In this document: piece after piece, positions 5,266-45,479 of the stretch | Position numbering within the stretch: the first letter of the stretch is position 1 | How the letters are laid out: every line of letters starts with the position of its first letter | Assembly: GCA_023269035.1 (NCBI GenBank) | Contig: JAHFMJ010000002.1 | Location: 12,671-76,670 of the forward strand | Length of the DNA stretch: 64,000 bases | Origin: Candidatus Kaiserbacteria bacterium | GTDB taxonomy: Bacteria > Patescibacteriota > Minisyncoccia > Phycocordibacterales > Phycocordibacteraceae | Reading direction: 5' to 3' | Translations under genes and position numbers: made by a program | Notes under the pieces: generated by a model | What the model was told of the DNA's origin: nothing | The model's input: the letters and a program-made list of their open reading frames with translations, nothing else | Database searches by the model: none

Positions 5266-6695
5266 TGTCTAAGTTCTATCTCACGACGCCGATTTTTTAT
5301 CCAAACGCGCGGCCTCATCTGGGCAACGTGTATCCAACCGTCATTGCTGATGCTCTCGCTCGTTATCATCGCTTGATGGGAGAGAGCACCTACTTTCTCA
5401 CCGGCACTGACGAGAATACTCAAAAAATGGTCGATGCCGCTACAAAGATTGGCACAGACCCGATCCGATTTCTTGACGGCACTGTCGCCGAGTTCAAGAA
5501 GACCTTTACTGACCTTTCTATTTCTTTCGACCAGTATATCCGCACGACCGATCAAGAAATCCATTGGCCGGGGGCGACCGCGCTCTGGCAGAAGTTCGTC
5601 GCCTCCGGGGATATTTATAAAAAAGAGTATGAAGGCCTCTACTGCGTCGGCCATGAAGCCTTTATCACCGAGAAGGATCTCGTTGATGGCAGGTGCCCTG
5701 AGCATGACACGGTACCGGAGCGTCTCAAGGAAGAGAATTATTTCTTTCGTCTCTCCAAGTATGCCGATGCGGTACGTGCGGTCATTCAAAGTGGCGAGTT
5801 GCGCATCCTCCCGCAAGAAAGGAAGAACGAAATACTCGCCTTTATCGGGCGCGGGCTCGAGGATGTCAGCTTTTCCCGCCCCCGCCGTACTCAGTGGCCT
5901 CAGGGCCTCGGGGTTCCCGTTCCCGGTGACGAGACGCAGGTGATGTATGTGTGGTGCGACGCTCTCGCAAATTACATAACAGCGATCGGATACGGACGCG
6001 ACGAAGCTCTGTTTACAACCTGGTGGCCAGCGGACCTTCACGTTATCGGCAAAGACCTCTTGCGCTTCCATGCCGCTATTTGGCCGGCGATGCTCCTATC
6101 GGCAGGACTCCCGTTACCCAAGGCCATCCTCGCACACGGGCTGATACTCTCTGGGGGTAAAAAGATGTCAAAGACGCTCGGCAATGTGATAGACCCGGTC
6201 GAGCTTATCGAGACCTATGGCTCTGATGCCGTACGGTACTATCTCTTACGGCACATCCCGCCGTTCTCGGACGGGGATATGACCGTCGAGGGCTTCAAGG
6301 AAGCCTACAACGGCAACCTGGCAAACGGCCTCGGAAATCTCGTCGCACGCATCATGAAGCTCGCCGAAGATAATCTTGAAGCGCCGATATCTCCGCCACC
6401 TGCCGCCATCCCGCCCGAGTGGAAAGCCTCCTTCGATTCTTTCGAACTCAACCGCGCGATGGATATCACCTGGGAGAAGATCCAAAAACTCGACCAACGA
6501 ATCACTGCGGAGGAGCCATTCAAGCTCATCAAGAGCGATCCGAAAAAAGGGAAAGCACTCATCGCGGAATTAGTCGCCGACCTCTACCACATCGTGCGCC
6601 TCCTTCACCCAGTGATGCCCGGGACGCATGAAAAGATAAAAGCTGCCATCCTTGCGAACAAAAAACCCGAAAACCTCTTTAACCGCTTCGACTGA
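5265..6695 (+). CDS. metG: methionine--tRNA ligase
   Basis: A HIGH-region variant (PNARPHLGNVY) and the KMSKS motif (KMSKTLGNVIDP) are present. Its start overlaps the previous gene's stop (TAATG). Confidence 0.9.
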   Translation: MSKFYLTTPIFYPNARPHLGNVYPTVIADALARYHRLMGESTYFLTGTDENTQKMVDAATKIGTDPIRFLDGTVAEFKKTFTDLSISFDQYIRTTDQEIHWPGATALWQKFVASGDIYKKEYEGLYCVGHEAFITEKDLVDGRCPEHDTVPERLKEENYFFRLSKYADAVRAVIQSGELRILPQERKNEILAFIGRGLEDVSFSRPRRTQWPQGLGVPVPGDETQVMYVWCDALANYITAIGYGRDEALFTTWWPADLHVIGKDLLRFHAAIWPAMLLSAGLPLPKAILAHGLILSGGKKMSKTLGNVIDPVELIETYGSDAVRYYLLRHIPPFSDGDMTVEGFKEAYNGNLANGLGNLVARIMKLAEDNLEAPISPPPAAIPPEWKASFDSFELNRAMDITWEKIQKLDQRITAEEPFKLIKSDPKKGKALIAELVADLYHIVRLLHPVMPGTHEKIKAAILANKKPENLFNRFD

Positions 6696-7516
6696 TGAAA
6701 CCGAAATACGTCGACATACACTGTCACCCCTATATGGGCGCGCTCCTTGAGCAGCAGGACGCGGTTATTGCGCGGATGAAAGAGGACGGGGTGATAGGGA
6801 TGGTGGTCGGCGTTGATGAGGCAACCTCGCAGCAGGCGGTCGCACTTGCGGAGAAATACGACCACCTCTACGCGACTATCGGCTTGCACCCGACCGATGT
6901 GCCAGCGGAAAATTTTGATATATCAAAATTTTCCGCTCTGGTAACGAGTCCGAAGGTGGTCGCCATAGGCGAGTGTGGCATTGATTTTTTTCGCATCACT
7001 GGTGATGTTGAGGCCGAGAAAAAACGGCAATGGCAGACATTTGAAGTACAAGTGGCATTTGCACTCAAGCACGACAAGCCGCTGATGATCCATTGCCGTC
7101 CATCGAAAGGAAGTATGGATGCGTATCTTGAGATGCTCGACTATCTTGAACCGCGCGTAAAAGAAAACCATTCACTCCGTGGCAACCTGCACTTTTTTGT
7201 CGGGAATCTTGATGTCGCGAAGCGCTTCTGGGCTATAGGCTTCACGACATCATTCACCGGTGTTTTGACCTTCACTCACGATTACGACGAAGTGGTAAAA
7301 GCTGCACCGCTCGATATGATACTTACCGAGACCGACGCCCCCTTTGCCGCTCCCTCTCCGTACCGCGGACAGACCAATTATCCTTCCTATGTACGGTACG
7401 TAGTAGAGGCGATTGCCCGCATCCGCGAAGAGTCTGAAGACAAAATTGCCGAAGCTGTCATGGCAAATGCGCGCCACCTTTTCGGTATTAGAGTAGGAAT
7501 TGCTTCAGAAAACTAA
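6695..7516 (+). CDS. tatD: TatD family metal-dependent hydrolase
   Basis: The opening VDIHCHPYM... and overall length are typical of TatD. It follows metG, a common arrangement. Confidence 0.85.
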   Translation: MKPKYVDIHCHPYMGALLEQQDAVIARMKEDGVIGMVVGVDEATSQQAVALAEKYDHLYATIGLHPTDVPAENFDISKFSALVTSPKVVAIGECGIDFFRITGDVEAEKKRQWQTFEVQVAFALKHDKPLMIHCRPSKGSMDAYLEMLDYLEPRVKENHSLRGNLHFFVGNLDVAKRFWAIGFTTSFTGVLTFTHDYDEVVKAAPLDMILTETDAPFAAPSPYRGQTNYPSYVRYVVEAIARIREESEDKIAEAVMANARHLFGIRVGIASEN

Positions 7517-23024: not shown

Positions 23025-26390
<3,366 letters not shown>

Positions 26391-26443: not shown

Positions 26444-26553
26444 TTCTGGTGGCTTGTCAGTGGGGTCATACCTGTTCCCATTCCGAACACAGAAGTCAAG
26501 CCCACGAGAGCCGATGGTACTCCGCAAGGGGGAGAGTAGGTAGTCGCCAGAAC
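26444..26553 (+). rRNA. rrf: 5S ribosomal RNA
   Basis: UCUGGUGGC…CCGAACACAGAAGUCAAGCCCACGAGAGCCGAUGGUACU…GAGAGUAGGUAGUCGCCAGAA, with helix I pairing at both ends. Confidence 0.85.
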
Positions 26554-35746: not shown

Positions 35747-36043
35747 GCCCTTTACGCTTGTCTCACGGTAAGCGTCGCTTTAACATCACTATGACTCACT
35801 TCATTCAGTAACCTACCGATCGAAGAGACGTCTGTGTGATGCCGAGGCAAAAGCTTCGGCTTTTTCAATCCCGTGCGCTCGTTGACAACTGAATAACGAA
35901 AGATGCAATCACAAACAAACCAGTCTAAGAAACTAATCCCGACGTAAAAAGTCGGGACCCCGACCTAGGCGTCGGGGGAGCTATTCAATTTCTTCTGTTC
36001 CGACTATCGATCTCGTGCCGCCCAATTGGAGGCATGAGATCTT

Positions 36044-37498
36044 AACTGAGAGTTTGATCCTAGCTCAGGGTGAATGCTGGCGGCGTGGATAAGGCATGCA
36101 AGTCGAACGGGTTTAGACCCGTGGCAGACGAGGTAGTAACACGTAGGAACGTACCCCAAAGTCGGGCATATTCCGTCGAAAGACGGTGCAATTCCCGATA
36201 GTCTCTAAGGAGTAAAGATTTATCGCTTTGGGAGCGGCCTGCGTAATATCAGCTAGTTGGTAGGGTAATGGCCTACCAAGGCTATGACGTTTAGGGGAGC
36301 TGAGAGGCTGACCCCCACCGATGGAACTGAGATACGGTCCTTACTCCTACGGGAGGCCGCAGTCGAGAATCTTCCGCAATGGACGAAAGTCTGACGGAGC
36401 GACGCCGCGTGATGGATGAAGTCCTTCGGGACGTAAACATCTTTTATGAGGGATGAAGTTTTGACAGTACCTCATGAATAAGGGGCTCCTAACTCTGTGC
36501 CAGCAGGAGCGGTAATACAGAGGCCCCAAGCATTACCCGGAATCATTGGGCGTAAAGGGTGCGTAGGTGGCGTTGTTAGTCCTTTCTTAAATTCTCCGTG
36601 CTCAACACGGAGGCTCGAAGGGAAACGGCAATGCTCGAGGATGTACGAGGTACGTGGAACTCATGGTGTAGGGGTGAAATCCGTTGATATCATGGGGAAC
36701 ACCACAGGCGAAGGCAGCGTACTGGGACATTCCTGACACTGAGGCACGAAAGCGTGGGTAGCGAATGGGATTAGATACCCCAGTAGTCCACGCCCTAAAC
36801 CATGTTCTCTAGCTATAAGGAGTATCGACCCTCTTTGTGGCGAAGCTAACGCGTTAAGAGAACCGCCTGGGTAGTACGAGCGCAAGCTTAAAACTCAAAG
36901 GAATAGACGGGAATTCGCACAAGCGGTGGATCATGTGGCTCAATTCGTAGGTAAGCGAAGAACCTTACCAGGGCTAGAAACCTAGCTGCACGCCTCGGGA
37001 AACCGAGGAAGCCTTCGAGGGTGCTAGGCAGGTGATGCATGGTCGTCGTCAGTTCGTGGCTTGAGCTGTTCCCTTAAGTGGGGAAACGAACGCAACCCCC
37101 GTTGTCTGTTTTATATGTCAGGCAAGACAGCTCCCTCACGGGAGAGGAAGGAGGGGATGACGCCAGATCAGCATGTCCCTCTGATGCCCTGGGCTGCACA
37201 CGTGATACAATGGGCGCGACAAAAGGATGCAATACGGTAACGTGGAGCAAATCCCAAAACGCGTCCTCAGTACGGATAGAGGTCTGCAACTCGACCTCTT
37301 GAAGCTGGAATCGCTAGTAATCGTAGGTCAGCCATACTACGGTGAATACGTTCTCGAATTTTGTACTCACCGCCCGTCAACTCAAGGGAGCCGGGAATAC
37401 CCGACGCCCGCGTTTATCGCGGTCCACGGTAAGTTCGGTAACAGGGAGTAAGTCGTAACAAGGCACGGGTAGCGGAAGCTGCTCGTGGAACAATTCCA
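36044..37498 (+). rRNA. rrs: 16S ribosomal RNA (divergent, CPR-like; 3' end approximate)
   Basis: It opens with AGAGUUUGAUCCUAGCUCAG…CAUGCAAGUCGAACGG. The internal conserved regions are recognisable but carry mismatches to universal sites: GTGCCAGCAGGAGCGGTAA versus the 515F consensus, GGATTAGATACCCCAGTAGTCC versus the 806R consensus, and TGTACTCACCGCCCGTCA. Helix 45 is intact (CACGGGUAGC-GGAA-GCUGCUCGUG). About 1455 nt. Confidence 0.85.
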
Positions 37499-37676
37499 TG
37501 CGGAAAACATCTCTCCGAGATTCGTCTCGAAGGATTTATCCGGTCGATTGCCGAAAGGCAGAGTGATGATGTATGACTCTAAACAACATCCGGCACGCAG
37601 ATTGCCGAAACTGCGATAGGCGGAACAGAAGAAAGGGAAGAGCTCTTGGTCACTCTGGTTTGGAAATTCCAGGGAT

Positions 37677-40496: not shown

Positions 40497-40932
40497 CATG
40501 ACGGTCGAGATCCCAGGCAGTCATTGGATAGGCGAGATAGATCAGAAGGCTTTTATAGTCCAAGACGGCAAAGTATTGATGTGCCTCGATGCTTTCGTCC
40601 GTAAGTGGGACTTTCCCGGCGGGCGGCTGCACAAGAGTGAAGGATACGAAGAAGGATTTGCCCGCGAGATACGTGAAGAACTCGGGATAGAAATCGTCTT
40701 GGGCGGCCCCCGGTACGTCTATCTTGGAGAAGGGGAACGCTTTTATAGCGGCATCCCCCGCTACTACATTATCTTTGATGCAACGCTTAAAGACCCGAGC
40801 GCGAAGTTTACTGTCGCTGAAGATGAGATACTGGAATTGAAGTGGATAGGCGCAGGGGATGTCTCCGACCTTGCAACCTGGGAAGAGTGGCGGGAGATCC
40901 TGAAAGGTTATTTCAAAAATCATGCTTCCTAA
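40497..40932 (+). CDS. NUDIX hydrolase
   Basis: NUDIX box GGRLHKSEGYEEGFAREIREELGIE. The start was trimmed to the ATG after the preceding stop. Confidence 0.75.
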
Positions 40933-41566
40933 GATACTCGTGTTCGCGTCGGGCTCTTCGACTGGTGGCGGGTCGGGGTTTGAGAACCTGGTGCGCCACT
41001 CGCGCGAAGCGGGCGGCGACCTGAAAGCCGAGATCGTCGGCGTCGTCAGCAACAACGAGCACGGCGGCGTGCGCCTGCGTGCTGATGCACTCAAGATTCC
41101 TTTTATCTATTTTTCAGGGCCCTATGACGCCGAGCATTATCGCGCGCTTGCTGAGAAGAGCGGCGCGGAGTGGTTTGTGCTCTCCGGCTGGCTTAAGAAA
41201 GTGCAAGGGTTGGACCCAAAACGGACATTCAACATCCACCCCGCGCTCCTCTCTATACTCGGTGGCCACTTTGGCGGCAAAGACATGTACGGCCACCATG
41301 TGCTTGATGCCGTGTACGGAGCCCTAAAGAGAAGGGAAGTGAATGAGTTTGGCATTAGCATGCATTTCGTGACGGACGAGTACGACCGCGGTCCCGTCTT
41401 TTTTGAACACGCAATGACGGTGAAGGAAGGTATGACGAAAGAGGAAATGGGTGAGAAGGTGCACAAAGCCGAGCACGAGTGGCAGCCAAAGATAACCAAC
41501 ATGGTCGTGCACGGCGAGATTGAGTGGGACGGCAGCGACCCGCAGTCGCTCAAGGTCCCTAGTTGA
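40922..41566 (+). CDS. purN: formyltransferase, PurN-like (phosphoribosylglycinamide formyltransferase family)
   Basis: N-terminal ILVFASGSSTGG…, and NIHPALL matches the catalytic NIHPSLLP motif region of the formyl_trans_N domain. 214 aa. Confidence 0.65.
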   Translation: MLPKILVFASGSSTGGGSGFENLVRHSREAGGDLKAEIVGVVSNNEHGGVRLRADALKIPFIYFSGPYDAEHYRALAEKSGAEWFVLSGWLKKVQGLDPKRTFNIHPALLSILGGHFGGKDMYGHHVLDAVYGALKRREVNEFGISMHFVTDEYDRGPVFFEHAMTVKEGMTKEEMGEKVHKAEHEWQPKITNMVVHGEIEWDGSDPQSLKVPS

Positions 41567-41582
41567 TATATAGTAGCGGGAC

Positions 41583-41664
41583 GGGCACGTGGCGGAATTG
41601 GTATACGCGTACGTCTCAGAAGCGTATGTCGCAAGACTTGGGAGTTCGAGTCTCCCCGTGCCCA
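41583..41664 (+). tRNA. tRNA-Leu (anticodon CAG), class II with long variable arm, no encoded CCA
   Basis: Acceptor GGGCACG/CGUGCCC. The D-arm UGGCGGAAUUGGUAUACGCG is nearly identical to the E. coli tRNA-Leu D-arm. Anticodon stem UACGU/GCGUA with loop CUCAGAA. Variable arm UGUCGCAAGACUU. T-arm GGGAG-UUCGAGU-CUCCC. Confidence 0.8.
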
Positions 41665-41668
41665 CTGG

Positions 41669-42091
41669 CTAGAGTTTGAAGTGCGCGGTTGAGTTGAACG
41701 TACGGTAGTCGACCGTCAGCTCTTCTCCTTTTTTTATATCACGCGAAGCGACGAACGTGTCGCCTTCGTCATGTGTCACGAGGTTTGGCTTACGGGAATG
41801 GTTGAGGAAATACGACTTATCCATGGCTTCCAGCCCGAAATCAGGCACGTAATACGCACCATCCTGGAGGGCGCAGAAATCACGCACCATGTCCTTTGCC
41901 TCCTTCGGTGCGTCTATCGCGTCGAGTTCTTTGACCGAAATGCGGAAGGTCCGCTTGCCGCTCTTGCAGTGTTTGAAAGGGGCGGTGCCTTTCGGCATCC
42001 GGCGTACAGCGACGACCCCGACCCCGTGCTTCGTTATGCCGATCCGGCAGTACACGTCGGAGAGCGAGCGGAGGAACTCTTGCTTGTTCAT
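41669..42091 (-). CDS. SET-domain protein (putative lysine methyltransferase), 140 aa
   Basis: It is the C-terminal part of the long antisense ORF 41669-43423, starting from MNKQEFL…. SET signatures are present: GVGVVAVRRMPKGT, YFLNHSRKPNLV (an NHSCxPN-like motif with Cys replaced by Arg) and GEELTVDYRTF. Its stop lies 4 nt from the tRNA-Leu 3' end. Confidence 0.6.
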   Translation of the reverse strand: MNKQEFLRSLSDVYCRIGITKHGVGVVAVRRMPKGTAPFKHCKSGKRTFRISVKELDAIDAPKEAKDMVRDFCALQDGAYYVPDFGLEAMDKSYFLNHSRKPNLVTHDEGDTFVASRDIKKGEELTVDYRTFNSTAHFKL

Positions 42092-42133
42092 GAGGTGATA
42101 TTCTACTATGATTCTTTCTATACCAGAAAACCA

Positions 42134-43450
42134 ATGAACGGAGATACCACTACCGACCACAAAAGACGTTTCCTCTTCGTGTCCTACGAGAACTGCGCGA
42201 GCGATATCGCCTGGCAGGTGGCTAAGGAGGGGAACGAGGTGAAGTTCTATATCGCGAGCAAGGACGACCAGGATGTCGGCGAAGGTTTTTTCGAAAAGGT
42301 CCAGGATTGGAAGGCCGAGGTCGCGTGGGCCGATGTCATCGTGTTCGACGACGTGTTCGGCTTCGGCAACTCCGCAAGCCAGCTGCGCAAGCAGGGGAAG
42401 CTGGTCGTTGGCGGTACCGCCTATACCGACCAGCTCGAGATAGACCGTTCCTTCGGCCAGAGCGAGCTCAAGCGGCTCGGCGTCCCCATACTTAACTATC
42501 AGGAGTTCACCGATTTCGATGCCGGCATTCAGTACGTCAAAGAGCATCCGGATGCCTACGTGATCAAGCCCTCCGGCGCGGCACAGAACCACAAACAGCT
42601 CCTTTTCGTGGGCCAGGAAGATGACGGCGCCGACGTCGTACGTACCCTTGAGGCATATAAGAAGGTCTGGGCGAAACAGATAAAGGTGTTCCAGCTCCAG
42701 AAAAAGGTCTTGGGCGTCGAGATAGCTGTCGGCGCGTTCTTCAACGGTAACCGCTTCATAACCCCGATCAACGTCAACTTCGAGCACAAGAACCTCTTTC
42801 CCGGAAACGTCGGCCCGCCGACCGGGGAGATGGGCACGAGCATGTTCTGGAGCTCGCCGAACAAACTCTTCAACGCAACCCTTAAGAAATTCGAGGAGAA
42901 GCTCGCTGAAGAGAAGTACGTCGGCTACATCGACCTCAATTGCATCGTCAACGGATACGGCATCTACCCGCTCGAGTTTACCGCACGCTTCGGCTACCCG
43001 ACCATCCAGATACAGCAGGAAGGCATGATGATGCCGACTGGCGAGCTGCTCTACATGCTTGCCTCGGGCGCCGACTTCGAGCTCAAGACTAAGAAAGGCT
43101 TTCAGGTCGGTGTCGCGCTTGTCGTTGCACCGTACCCGTACGAGGATAAGCGCATCTTCGACGCCTATTCGAAAGATACGACCATCGTGTTCAAGAAGCC
43201 TAACCAGCTTGAGGGTGTGCACATATCCGAAGTGCGCATGGTGAACGGCGAGTGGGTTGCCGCAGGATTTACCGGCTATCTCATCGTCGTCGTCGGCACC
43301 GGGCAGACGATGAAGCAGGCACAACAGCAGGCCTACAGCAGGGTGCAGAACATACTGATACCGAACATGTACTACCGGACCGACATTGGTGATAGGTGGT
43401 TCGAGGACTCCGACAAACTCCACAACTGGGGGTATCTCCGCGAGTCCTAA
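42134..43450 (+). CDS. purD: phosphoribosylamine--glycine ligase-like ATP-grasp enzyme
   Basis: The tracked ORF 41771-43450 has a non-protein-like N-terminus that is antisense to the SET gene. It was trimmed to the ATG at 42134. The ATP-grasp core and the block YPLEFTARFGYPTIQI match the PurD motif LEFNxRFGDPETQ. About 438 aa. Confidence 0.7.
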   Translation: MNGDTTTDHKRRFLFVSYENCASDIAWQVAKEGNEVKFYIASKDDQDVGEGFFEKVQDWKAEVAWADVIVFDDVFGFGNSASQLRKQGKLVVGGTAYTDQLEIDRSFGQSELKRLGVPILNYQEFTDFDAGIQYVKEHPDAYVIKPSGAAQNHKQLLFVGQEDDGADVVRTLEAYKKVWAKQIKVFQLQKKVLGVEIAVGAFFNGNRFITPINVNFEHKNLFPGNVGPPTGEMGTSMFWSSPNKLFNATLKKFEEKLAEEKYVGYIDLNCIVNGYGIYPLEFTARFGYPTIQIQQEGMMMPTGELLYMLASGADFELKTKKGFQVGVALVVAPYPYEDKRIFDAYSKDTTIVFKKPNQLEGVHISEVRMVNGEWVAAGFTGYLIVVVGTGQTMKQAQQQAYSRVQNILIPNMYYRTDIGDRWFEDSDKLHNWGYLRES

Positions 43451-43458
43451 CTGCCTTC

Positions 43459-44148
43459 ATGAACATCAAGCCTGTCAAAACCCGTACCTTTAAGGAAGGA
43501 GAAAACCTATCGTCTTTCATCGCGCGCTACATCAAAAAGGTTCCTGAACGCTCCGTGCTCGTTATCAGCTCCAAGGTGGTTGCGCTCGCGGAGGGCCGCA
43601 CTGCGCCGCTCTCGCAGAGAGCGGCGCTTATAAAGAGCGAGAGCGACCCGCGCTTCAAGGTTAACGACCCATGGTTCACGGTCAAAGACGGCATGGTGAT
43701 GGCCGCCGCCGGTATCGACGAGTCAAACGCAGACGGCAAGCTCATACTCCTTCCGAAGGATAGTTATAGTTCGGCCGTGGTGCTTCGGAAAGCTTTGCAA
43801 AAAAATTATAAAGTTAAATATCTTGGCGTTGTCATCGCGGACTCCTCCTTTATGCCGATGCGCTCAGGGGCTCTTGCTGCTGCGGTTGGCTACGCGGGTT
43901 TTAAAGGCCTGCGCGATTATCGCGGAAAGAAGGACATCTTCGGAAGAAAGCTCAAAGTCTCGTGGACGAATGTCGCAGATTCTCTCGCAACCGCCGCAAC
44001 CTTAGTGATGGGCGAAGGGGACGAGCGACAGCCACTTGCGCTTATCACCGACGCCCCGGTTCAATTTGTTGAGAAGGTGAATAAAAAGGAGCTTCGCATG
44101 CCGCCAAAAGGCGACATGTACGCGAAGCTCATAAGAAGCAGAAAATAG
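43459..44148 (+). CDS. CofE-family (F420-0:gamma-glutamyl ligase-like) protein
   Basis: Aligns block-by-block with archaeal CofE: VLVISSKVVALAEGR versus VLVVCSTVISKAEGR, AAAGIDESNADGKLILLPKD versus NAGIDASNVEEGSLLLPPLD, and …LGVVIADSSFMPMRSG…GRKLKVSWTNVADSLATAATLVMGEGDERQPLALI. The start was trimmed to the ATG at 43459. Confidence 0.7.
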   Translation: MNIKPVKTRTFKEGENLSSFIARYIKKVPERSVLVISSKVVALAEGRTAPLSQRAALIKSESDPRFKVNDPWFTVKDGMVMAAAGIDESNADGKLILLPKDSYSSAVVLRKALQKNYKVKYLGVVIADSSFMPMRSGALAAAVGYAGFKGLRDYRGKKDIFGRKLKVSWTNVADSLATAATLVMGEGDERQPLALITDAPVQFVEKVNKKELRMPPKGDMYAKLIRSRK

Positions 44149-45479
44149 TGCTCCGAGGTACAATACCGAATATGAAGGAATGGAAACCGCTTGCCAAGCG
44201 TTTTATCTTCGAGCGTTTTGACATTGAACCCGAGAACGGCCGTATTGCTTTTGTGTATACGACGGATGCAGGACATTCTTTCACCCATGAACTCAGCTAT
44301 GACTTTCCCAAAAATGTGAACGTACAAGAGCTCATCCCAGCGGCTTTTGCGCTCGGCATGGCAGAGCTCGCGCATTTTTGGAAAGCGACCCTTGCTCCGG
44401 AGATTCTCGTGAAAGCGGGCGCACTTTCCAAAGACCAAATCGCGTTCTGGGAAAATCTTTACACCAAAGGGCTCGGTGAGTTTTTTTATGTCAATCAGAT
44501 AGATTTTCGCGGTCTGATACAGATAGCTAGCGCTCCGAAGGTGCCGGAAATTCGACCCGCGGGAGGCACTCGGGCGCCAAATCGTGCGCTGGTCCCCTTT
44601 GGCGGCGGTAAAGACTCCTTGGTCACGGGGGAGATGCTTAAGAAGCAAGAAAAAGGGTTTTCGTGGTTCGAGCTTGAACCACTGCCTTTCGGAAAAAAAC
44701 TACGAGAAATATCAGGCGTTACCACATGCGTGAGCATGGGCCGTAACGTGGCGAGGAACTTTGCTTCCATTATGGATCTTGTTCGACAAGGAGCCCCGAA
44801 CGGCCACGTACCCATTACAGCGACCTATATGTTTAGTGCCGCCTTTGTTGCGCAGGCGGAGGGTTTCTCCGATATCGTGATGTCGCTCGAGAGGAGTGCA
44901 GACGTCGGGAATGTTGAGTACCTCGGTCAGATGGTGAATCATCAGTATTCGAAAAGTCTTGAGTTTGAAATCATGGCGGCAGAGTATATCCGCACCTATA
45001 TCAACCCCGATCTGCGGCTCTTCTCGCTCCTGCGACCGCTCTATGAGATACAGATAGCGCAGGAGTTCGCAAAGCACTCCGAATATTTCTCCTCCTTCAT
45101 CTCTTGCAACCGCGGCCTTAAGACAGGTACTTGGTGCGGAGAATGTGCAAAATGCGCTTTCATGTTCGCGGCGCTCTCGGCATTTCTCCCACCTCAGACG
45201 GTTGTTGGTATCTTTAAAAAGAACCTCTTTGAGGACACGCTGCTTCTACCACTGTATACCGATATGATAGGCCTTGGCAGTATGAAGCCGTTCGACTGTG
45301 TCGGCACGTTTGAAGAAAATCTCCTCGCGCTCTTTCTCTCGGGAGAACAGTATAAGAAAGTAGGCATGTCACTACCGGCCATCCTCATGCAATTGCCAAT
45401 TGCAAAGGGCGGAGAGCACACAGGATTGCTTACCGAACGCGGCGACCACCGCATCCCGAAAGAGTATAGGTATGAATAG
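44148..45479 (+). CDS. PP-loop ATP pyrophosphatase-family protein with QueC-like core and extra N- and C-terminal domains; candidate MurL-type (UDP-MurNAc-L-Ala-L-Glu) epimerase
   Basis: 443 aa. A PP-loop SGGxDS-type motif (LVPFGGGKDSLV) sits at about residue 155. A QueC-like zinc motif C-x9-C-x2-C-x2-C (SCNRGLKTGTWCGECAKCA) sits at about residue 330. The start codon (GTG at 44148 or ATG at 44172) abuts or overlaps the CofE-like stop, and the 3' end overlaps the murD start by 8 nt. The gene itself is confident. The functional call is a hypothesis. Confidence 0.45.
   Translation: MLRGTIPNMKEWKPLAKRFIFERFDIEPENGRIAFVYTTDAGHSFTHELSYDFPKNVNVQELIPAAFALGMAELAHFWKATLAPEILVKAGALSKDQIAFWENLYTKGLGEFFYVNQIDFRGLIQIASAPKVPEIRPAGGTRAPNRALVPFGGGKDSLVTGEMLKKQEKGFSWFELEPLPFGKKLREISGVTTCVSMGRNVARNFASIMDLVRQGAPNGHVPITATYMFSAAFVAQAEGFSDIVMSLERSADVGNVEYLGQMVNHQYSKSLEFEIMAAEYIRTYINPDLRLFSLLRPLYEIQIAQEFAKHSEYFSSFISCNRGLKTGTWCGECAKCAFMFAALSAFLPPQTVVGIFKKNLFEDTLLLPLYTDMIGLGSMKPFDCVGTFEENLLALFLSGEQYKKVGMSLPAILMQLPIAKGGEHTGLLTERGDHRIPKEYRYE

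Follow-up and report, generated by a model that had tools for sequence, protein, structure and literature searches.

We analyzed a window of 64,000 nucleotides from Candidatus Kaiserbacteria (contig JAHFMJ010000002.1) and describe here a gene for a SET-domain methyltransferase found on its minus strand at positions 41669..42091. The gene consists of 140 codons and a TAG stop codon, with its ATG start at 42091-42089 and its stop at 41671-41669, and it forms the 3' end of a 584 amino acid minus-strand open reading frame (ORF) that spans 41669..43423. It lies between a tRNA-Leu(CAG) gene on one side and a gene for a PurD-like ATP-grasp protein on the other, both on the plus strand. An initial annotation, made from the sequence alone, had described a 140 amino acid SET domain within this long antisense ORF. 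Its coordinates proved to be exact, and the YFLNHSRKPNLV and GEELTVDYRTF motifs are both found in the protein. The hidden Markov model search that it had proposed as a check gave a match to Pfam PF00856 with an E-value of 5.1e-11 and a score of 43.4 bits over profile positions 1-104 of 105, above the gathering score of 22.4 bits and far above chance level.

A search of a collection of 5.8 billion proteins returned 195 homologues with 56-68% identity (best E-value 3e-59), nearly all of them 140-150 amino acids long and all with a precomputed PF00856 match. The closest homologue is only 68% identical to the window protein, and an exact-sequence look-up of the latter returned no identical record. 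The homologues that have a name are called 'SET domain-containing protein' and come from Patescibacteria, Paceibacterota, Adlerbacteria or Parcubacteria. We also ran an exhaustive profile search on 1.84 billion cluster representatives. This led to the identification of 485 clusters (at 50% identity) with an E-value of at most 1e-10 and 1484 with an E-value of at most 1e-3, the proteins being mostly stand-alone and about 140 amino acids long. Scanning GTDB with a single genome for each species gave 64 SET loci. About 37 of these are close relatives found in Paceibacteria-type metagenome-assembled genomes (MAGs) labelled Adlerbacteria, Lloydbacteria, Paceibacterota or Minisyncoccia; the remaining ones, with 36-47% identity, carry the MAG labels Doudnabacteria, Pacearchaeota, Gammaproteobacteria, Planctomycetota, Gemmatimonadetes, Eisenbacteria, Bacteroidetes and Spirochaetia. 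Twelve viral contigs (IMG/VR, L065-L076; labels of this kind designate loci of relatives throughout), one of them a giant-virus MAG, encode distant relatives with 28-44% identity. The view that SET domains are sporadic in bacteria, put forward in the initial annotation, does not agree with the 485 clusters or with the at least 37 species-level Paceibacteria genomes that have the close form. The stretch is a real SET-domain gene that belongs to a family of the Paceibacteria (Patescibacteria, or Candidate Phyla Radiation). Public MAGs already contain annotated members of the family, and the window gene is an ordinary case within a known class of enzymes.

Conservation of the SET motifs was analyzed in a close alignment of 31 close homologues (A1) and in a broad alignment of 38 representatives with 31-53% identity (A2). 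On the minus strand, the GxG motif that binds S-adenosylmethionine (AdoMet), or SET motif I, corresponds to codons G23-V24-G25 (42017..42025), the NHSxxPN motif to codons N97-H-S-R-K-P-N103 (41783..41803) and the ELxxDY motif with the catalytic-site Tyr to codons E123-E-L-T-V-D-Y129 (41705..41725). Residues that are invariant in A1 include G23-V-G25, V69-RDFCALQ76, N97-H-S99, N103, G122, E124-L125 and Y129. In A2, G23, G25, A28, N97 and E124 are invariant, R16, I32, F39, S99, N103, G122, E123, L125 and Y129 are at least 90% conserved, and H98 is mostly, not always, kept. As a signature, the VRDFCALQ block is limited to the Paceibacteria clade. The window protein therefore carries the whole set of cofactor and catalytic motifs, namely GxG, (R/Y)FxNHSxxPN and ELxxDY with its Tyr, and in a search against solved structures its residues 93-131 aligned with the NHSCxPN...GEELTYDY segment of KMT2A-D. 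Judging from these alignments, the AdoMet-binding and methyl-transfer motifs of the family are strongly constrained. The predicted model of the protein has the SET (beta-clip) fold and matched the viral vSET in Foldseek (3kma) with an E-value of 4.6e-6; structural matches in BFVD include other viral SETs, those of phages and giant viruses among them. At the N-terminus there is an amphipathic helix whose sequence, MNKxxFLxSL, is conserved.

The initial annotation had suggested that replacement of the motif Cys by Arg (NHSRKPN) may affect the pseudoknot and the Zn site. In the SET families where it is present, the NHSC cysteine helps the post-SET Cys cluster (CxCxxxxC) to bind zinc. In the window protein residue 100 is Arg and the 11 residues that follow Y129 contain no Cys, so that both parts of this zinc site, the Cys of NHSCxPN and CxCxxxxC, are missing. 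The family as a whole has only a tail of 11-20 amino acids beyond the catalytic Tyr, without a conserved Cys cluster, and the residue after NHS in close homologues is R, K, S, T, D, E, A or L. Because the family has no post-SET module, R100 has no special meaning, and the suggested effect on a Zn site was abandoned. The NCBIfam model of Legionella AnkI/LegAS4 (RomA), NF043024, scored 11.3 bits against a cutoff of 550, over residues 112-136 only. The window protein thus belongs to the SET superfamily (class V), outside the post-SET zinc-cluster subfamilies and outside the LegAS4 family.

The part of the 584 amino acid ORF that lies upstream of the SET gene comprises 444 codons (42092..43423, minus strand). 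It gave no match in Pfam and is exactly antisense to the PurD-like gene, with the codons of the two in register. TTA, CTA and TCA are the reverse complements of stop codons, and none of the 439 codons of the PurD-like gene is one of them (GC content at third codon positions, or GC3, 0.78). These three make up about 0.66% of codons in local genes, which corresponds to a probability of about 0.06 of finding none in 430 codons; their absence is statistically unremarkable. The codon register and the lack of TTA, CTA and TCA in the PurD-like gene indicate that the long ORF is a shadow, with a gene only in its last 140 codons. There is a lesson for annotation here, since a real small gene was concealed in the last part of a long antisense shadow ORF, and codon register together with codon usage accounts for the shadow itself.

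The genes next to the SET gene encode PurN-like and PurD-like proteins, and no integrase is adjacent. The tRNA-Leu(CAG) gene was placed on the plus strand at 41583..41665 by ARAGORN and at 41583-41664 by Rfam (55.7 bits). It converges on the SET gene, and 3-4 nucleotides separate its 3' end from the SET stop codon, which agrees with the abutment reported initially. The PurN-like formyltransferase gene (40922..41566, plus strand) encodes a protein that matches Formyl_trans_N (E-value 4.3e-16) and scores 70.8 bits against TIGR00639, under the cutoff of 150. The PurD-like gene (42134..43450, plus strand) encodes 438 amino acids with matches to GARS_A (E-value 1.2e-13) and GARS_C (E-value 4.9e-11) and no match to GARS_N; against TIGR00877 the protein scores 114.8 bits, under the equivalog cutoff of 288 bits. 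The initial annotation had named this gene purD, divergent from SET and 42 nucleotides away. The spacing was correct, whereas the identity has to be restricted to a PurD-like ATP-grasp protein. Homologues of the PurD-like protein in 80 diverse metagenome loci have 61-83% identity (61-66% in 79 of the 80), and the family is a divergent, very conserved PurD clade. Farther along, a CofE-like gene (43396-44148) scores 187.6 bits against the cutoff of 350 of TIGR04132, 'putative folate metabolism gamma-glutamate ligase'. It is followed on the plus strand by an ORF of 443 amino acids (44148-45479) that has no Pfam match and in which PP-loop-like 'PFGGGKDS' and CGECAKC motifs were recognized by eye. 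The family of this ORF is conserved and uncharacterised; in L007 a member (66%) neighbours the PurD-like gene, and in L035 another (40%) lies 1.3 kb from SET.

Parts of this arrangement recur in relatives. The tRNA-Leu(CAG) gene converges directly on SET in L007 and L033 too, and it is located 0.5-1.5 kb from SET in L035, L016, L019 and L025. A PurN-like gene adjoins SET in L007, L016, L019 and L162, and SET is flanked by a PurN-like gene, a PurD-like gene or both in L007, L010, L016, L019, L161 and L162. The PurD-like/SET/PurN-like microsynteny was found in L007, L010, L161 and L162, whose SET proteins are only 58-66% identical. In L007, an ORF of 232 amino acids with LAGLIDADG-like motifs seen by eye (6423-7163) overlaps or abuts the tRNA-Leu(CAG) gene beside SET; it is absent from the window.

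Between the ATG of the SET gene at 42091 and the ATG of the PurD-like gene at 42134 there is a divergent spacer of 42 nucleotides (42092..42133). In L007, L010, L161 and L162, an LPG_synthase_C-like gene (DUF2156/GNAT-type) encoding about 300 amino acids is present between the PurD-like gene and SET, and in relatives this gene is divergent from SET with a spacer of 5-47 nucleotides. It was found near SET only in these four loci and in L077, and nowhere in the 64-kb window. The 42-nucleotide spacer is best explained as the result of loss or relocation of the LPG_synthase_C-like gene in the lineage of the window.

Given so short a spacer, the initial annotation had asked for transcript data to confirm expression of the SET gene. 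On the minus strand a -10-like hexamer, TAGAAT (42100..42105), is found 8 nucleotides before the SET ATG, as a predicted promoter for a leaderless transcript. Such hexamers (TATACT, GATACT, TAGAAT and others), ending 6-8 nucleotides before the start, are present in 20 of 41 SET orthologues, compared with 0-6 in control windows of equal size farther upstream, and a Shine-Dalgarno (SD)-like motif was seen upstream of 1 out of 49 orthologues. The 3' end of the 16S rRNA of the window (37488-37500) reads ...GTGGAACAATTCC, without a CCUCC anti-SD sequence. SD-like motifs precede only 3 of the 46 long ORFs of the window, and two of these three are shadow ORFs. Translation initiation in this organism is apparently SD-independent. 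The position of the -10-like hexamer and a 16S rRNA without anti-SD suggest a leaderless mRNA, and the short spacer would consequently be no obstacle to expression; the SET gene probably gives a monocistronic mRNA that is leaderless or nearly so. A divergent spacer of 42 nucleotides may thus be enough where mRNAs are leaderless and the ribosome has no anti-SD. Initiation of purD farther upstream had been named as a finding that could speak against the SET frame. An in-frame GTG at 42095 is a possible alternative start of the PurD-like gene and would add 13 residues, yet even then there is no overlap with SET. A generic terminator scan of 41400-42400 gave two plus-strand sites only, both inside SET and not meaningful.

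On the plus strand of the spacer we also considered a coupled leader peptide, in which GAGGTGAT (42092-42099) is followed by an ATG at 42108 and the peptide MILSIPENQ, whose TGA stop codon overlaps the PurD-like ATG (ATGA). This candidate was rejected because the 16S rRNA has no CCUCC and because SD-like motifs are so rare before the long ORFs. The rRNA genes themselves are unlinked and in an unusual order, with 23S at 23043-26375, 5S at 26445-26552 and 16S at 36042-37500, about 9.5 kb downstream on the same strand. A tRNA-Ile(GAT) gene follows the 16S gene, and the segment runs to 38222. The 23S match is 3333 nucleotides long for a model of 2925 nucleotides and so contains about 400 nucleotides of extra sequence (insertions).

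We propose, with a probability of roughly 0.6, that the gene encodes a cytoplasmic, stand-alone, minimal SET-domain AdoMet-dependent methyltransferase, inherited with its neighbourhood in a subset of Paceibacteria and probably expressed from a leaderless mRNA, and that it most likely methylates a lysine in a protein of the cell itself. The enzyme would be built of an N-terminal helix and a SET core and have no zinc modules of the pre-SET or post-SET kind. Binding of AdoMet would fall to G23-x-G25 and N97-H-S99, and the channel for methyl transfer would be closed off by the short C-terminal tail, which is aromatic, together with the E123-ELxxD-Y129 segment. A lysine of the organism's own protein is the most likely acceptor, and it might be carried by a nucleoid-associated or translation-related protein, for example. 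Transcription would start from the -10 element 8 nucleotides before the ATG and yield a leaderless, monocistronic message.

Several observations weigh against parts of this proposal. The initial annotation had recommended looking for a conserved partner, such as a histone-like, ribosomal or surface protein. We clustered the ORFs within 4.5 kb of SET in the 64 loci, after removing shadow ORFs overlapping SET, and no partner common to different clades was found. What this clustering left was lineage-specific housekeeping synteny only: Adlerbacteria-type loci have infC/rplT upstream and tmRNA/SmpB/FtsH downstream, and in the P0005 group SET is located beside a Suf cluster. Ten longer members of the family contain the SET domain alone, with no fused domain that would be informative. 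A generic sigma-70 scan of 41400-42400 called no promoter, so that the promoter proposed here rests on the hexamer motif. In Foldseek the TM-scores were only about 0.4, with the SET-I/insert region poorly matched to solved structures. Finally, the window copy is the most divergent of those sampled. Of 80 columns that are highly conserved in the clade, it differs at 13, compared with a median of 2, and D43K, G46K, D47R and V48T cluster in the loop after the GxG strand, where the model is also of lower confidence (mean predicted local distance difference test score, pLDDT, of 69 for residues 41-50). As a separate observation, L162 encodes a protein of 85 amino acids with a SWIB domain (chromatin-remodelling-type) at 1492-1749, 2.5 kb from SET, and the genome carries a homologue, P0007.

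The divergence of the window copy could mean that it is catalytically weakened or decaying, having lost its LPG_synthase_C-like neighbour and gathered unusual substitutions. The deviation count, the charge-reversing D43K/G46K/D47R cluster, an isoelectric point of 9.13 that is the highest in A1 (median 6.51) and the absence of the LPG_synthase_C-like gene from the window all point in this direction. The frame is nevertheless intact and of full length, all the invariant cofactor and catalytic residues are kept, most of the deviations are conservative (I/V/M, F/Y, D/E), and with a best match of only 68% identity the lineage of the window is just a long branch. We regard decay as very unlikely. 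Recent arrival of the gene was weighed on the evidence of the locus. The initial annotation had seen in the tRNA-Leu 3' end a classic insertion hot spot, which would make the SET gene the cargo of a mobile element recently integrated there. The gap of 3-4 nucleotides and the distant relatives on viral contigs are in line with this. However, the same tRNA abutment is found in L007 and L033, both flanks are syntenic with those of relatives, and the genes on either side are PurN-like and PurD-like, with no integrase next to SET. No repeat of at least 10 nucleotides derived from the tRNA-Leu 3' end, and hence nothing att-like, occurs in the 64-kb window, and PHROG and PADLOC gave no match. The SET gene has a GC content of 0.553 and a GC3 of 0.72, equal to those of its neighbours, in a window with a GC content of 0.546. 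None of the marks of tRNA-targeted integrative-element cargo, namely repeat, integrase, deviating composition and variable junction, was found at this locus. The conserved abutment and synteny, the native GC content and the lack of a tRNA-end repeat indicate that the arrangement is ancestral for the sub-clade and not the result of a recent integration, and we consider mobile cargo extremely improbable. Patescibacteria are generally thought to be host-dependent, which would suit an effector delivered to a host cell. Such an effector would methylate host histones or other chromatin proteins, as do Chlamydia NUE and Legionella RomA/LegAS4, and pathogen SET proteins are known to act in this way (PMC3980110). 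Against this, the window protein has no signal-like N-terminus, its maximal 15-residue Kyte-Doolittle hydropathy being 1.11 with no hydrophobic N-terminal segment, and it has no added targeting domains. It is also far from the AnkI/LegAS4 model (11.3 bits against 550), relatives of the same stand-alone architecture (36-47% identity) occur in MAGs of phyla not known to be host-associated, with the labels Gemmatimonadetes, Planctomycetota, Gammaproteobacteria and Eisenbacteria, and the neighbouring genes are housekeeping and not secretion genes. Because there is no export signal, because the architecture is shared with such phyla and because the neighbours are housekeeping genes, we favour an endogenous target over a host-chromatin effector, which seems distinctly unlikely.

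The alternatives that concern the substrate start from BurB, a SET protein of similar size that methylates a free amino acid (PMC12542666). With this precedent the SET fold is no guarantee of a lysine substrate, and a small-molecule substrate has to be treated as a live rival: the window enzyme would have as its substrate a metabolite or a free amino acid, the latter as in BurB, and be tied to the neighbouring purine/folate-type or LPG_synthase_C-like genes. SET genes of five subtypes, with 33-42% mutual identity, are indeed found beside PurD-like genes, in the window clade (the window with L007, L010, L161 and L162), in L077 (two copies), in L042 and in L043, a recurrence beyond chance expectation for so small a sample of contexts. 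In the AT-rich locus L077 (1056-4192), a PurD-like gene has a divergent SET paralogue on each side. The first shares the nucleotides ATGA with the start of the PurD-like gene; the second converges on the PurD-like stop and is divergent from the LPG_synthase_C-like gene. An ORF that resembles a class-I methyltransferase by eye follows in the same locus. In L043 (1769-8341), a Doudnabacteria operon of abutting or overlapping genes encodes a flavin mononucleotide (FMN) reductase (FMN_red), a PurD-like protein, a saccharopine-dehydrogenase-like protein, a peptidase M29 and SET. Just past a convergent ORF there, another ORF resembles AdoMet synthetase (MetK), by eye only. A metagenome scan centred on PurD-like genes, in contrast, covered 80 loci, of which only 1-2 had a SET gene within 8 kb, the 80 being mostly on high-GC contigs with BamD-like and ValS neighbours, and the majority of SET loci have no PurD-like or LPG_synthase_C-like gene nearby. 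A general functional link between PurD-like proteins and SET was accordingly rejected and is retained merely as a low-probability lead. The motifs, moreover, align best with lysine methyltransferases of the KMT2 type, and we consider a small-molecule substrate unlikely. A wider version of this idea would make the stand-alone Patescibacteria SETs part of a recurrent, uncharacterised module with the PurD-like ligase and, here, the divergent LPG_synthase_C-like aminoacyl-transferase, and not lysine methyltransferases of the nucleoid or histone type. They would then methylate a lysyl- or amino-bearing metabolite, a lipid, a cell-wall precursor or an enzyme of the module; we give this version only a slim chance.

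The gene shows that an ultra-small, host-dependent bacterial clade has a minimal SET methyltransferase as a lasting part of its chromosome. The very small genomes of these organisms and the strict conservation of the catalytic motifs suggest that a specific methylation event matters to them. Its target, if found, would inform what prokaryotic SET enzymes did before eukaryotic chromatin. In the literature searched we found no paper treating SET domains of Patescibacteria, Candidate Phyla Radiation bacteria or Parcubacteria as its topic, and comparison was made with the systems known from other organisms.

Compared with cores of the KMT2/MLL, SETD8, EZH2 and G9a types (PF00856), the window protein is only 140 amino acids long and has no pre-SET, post-SET, SET-N/WIN or partner-binding regions. 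It has no Cys after NHS, and it is prokaryotic, with no nucleosomal substrate; identity to these cores is only about 20-30% over 75-90 aligned residues. Chlamydia NUE, Legionella RomA/LegAS4 and Bacillus anthracis BaSET are exported, often larger multidomain proteins that act on host histones (PMC3980110), whereas the window SET has neither an export signal nor a secretion-system context. BurB of Burkholderia thailandensis is a SET-domain methionine S-methyltransferase. The viral vSET (PBCV-1, 119 amino acids) and the archaeal Go1-SET (Methanosarcina mazei) are, like the window protein, single-domain proteins of about 120-160 amino acids without zinc modules. Go1-SET methylates the chromatin protein MC1-alpha and so provides a precedent for a prokaryotic SET enzyme acting on a nucleoid protein of its own cell (PMC3980110).
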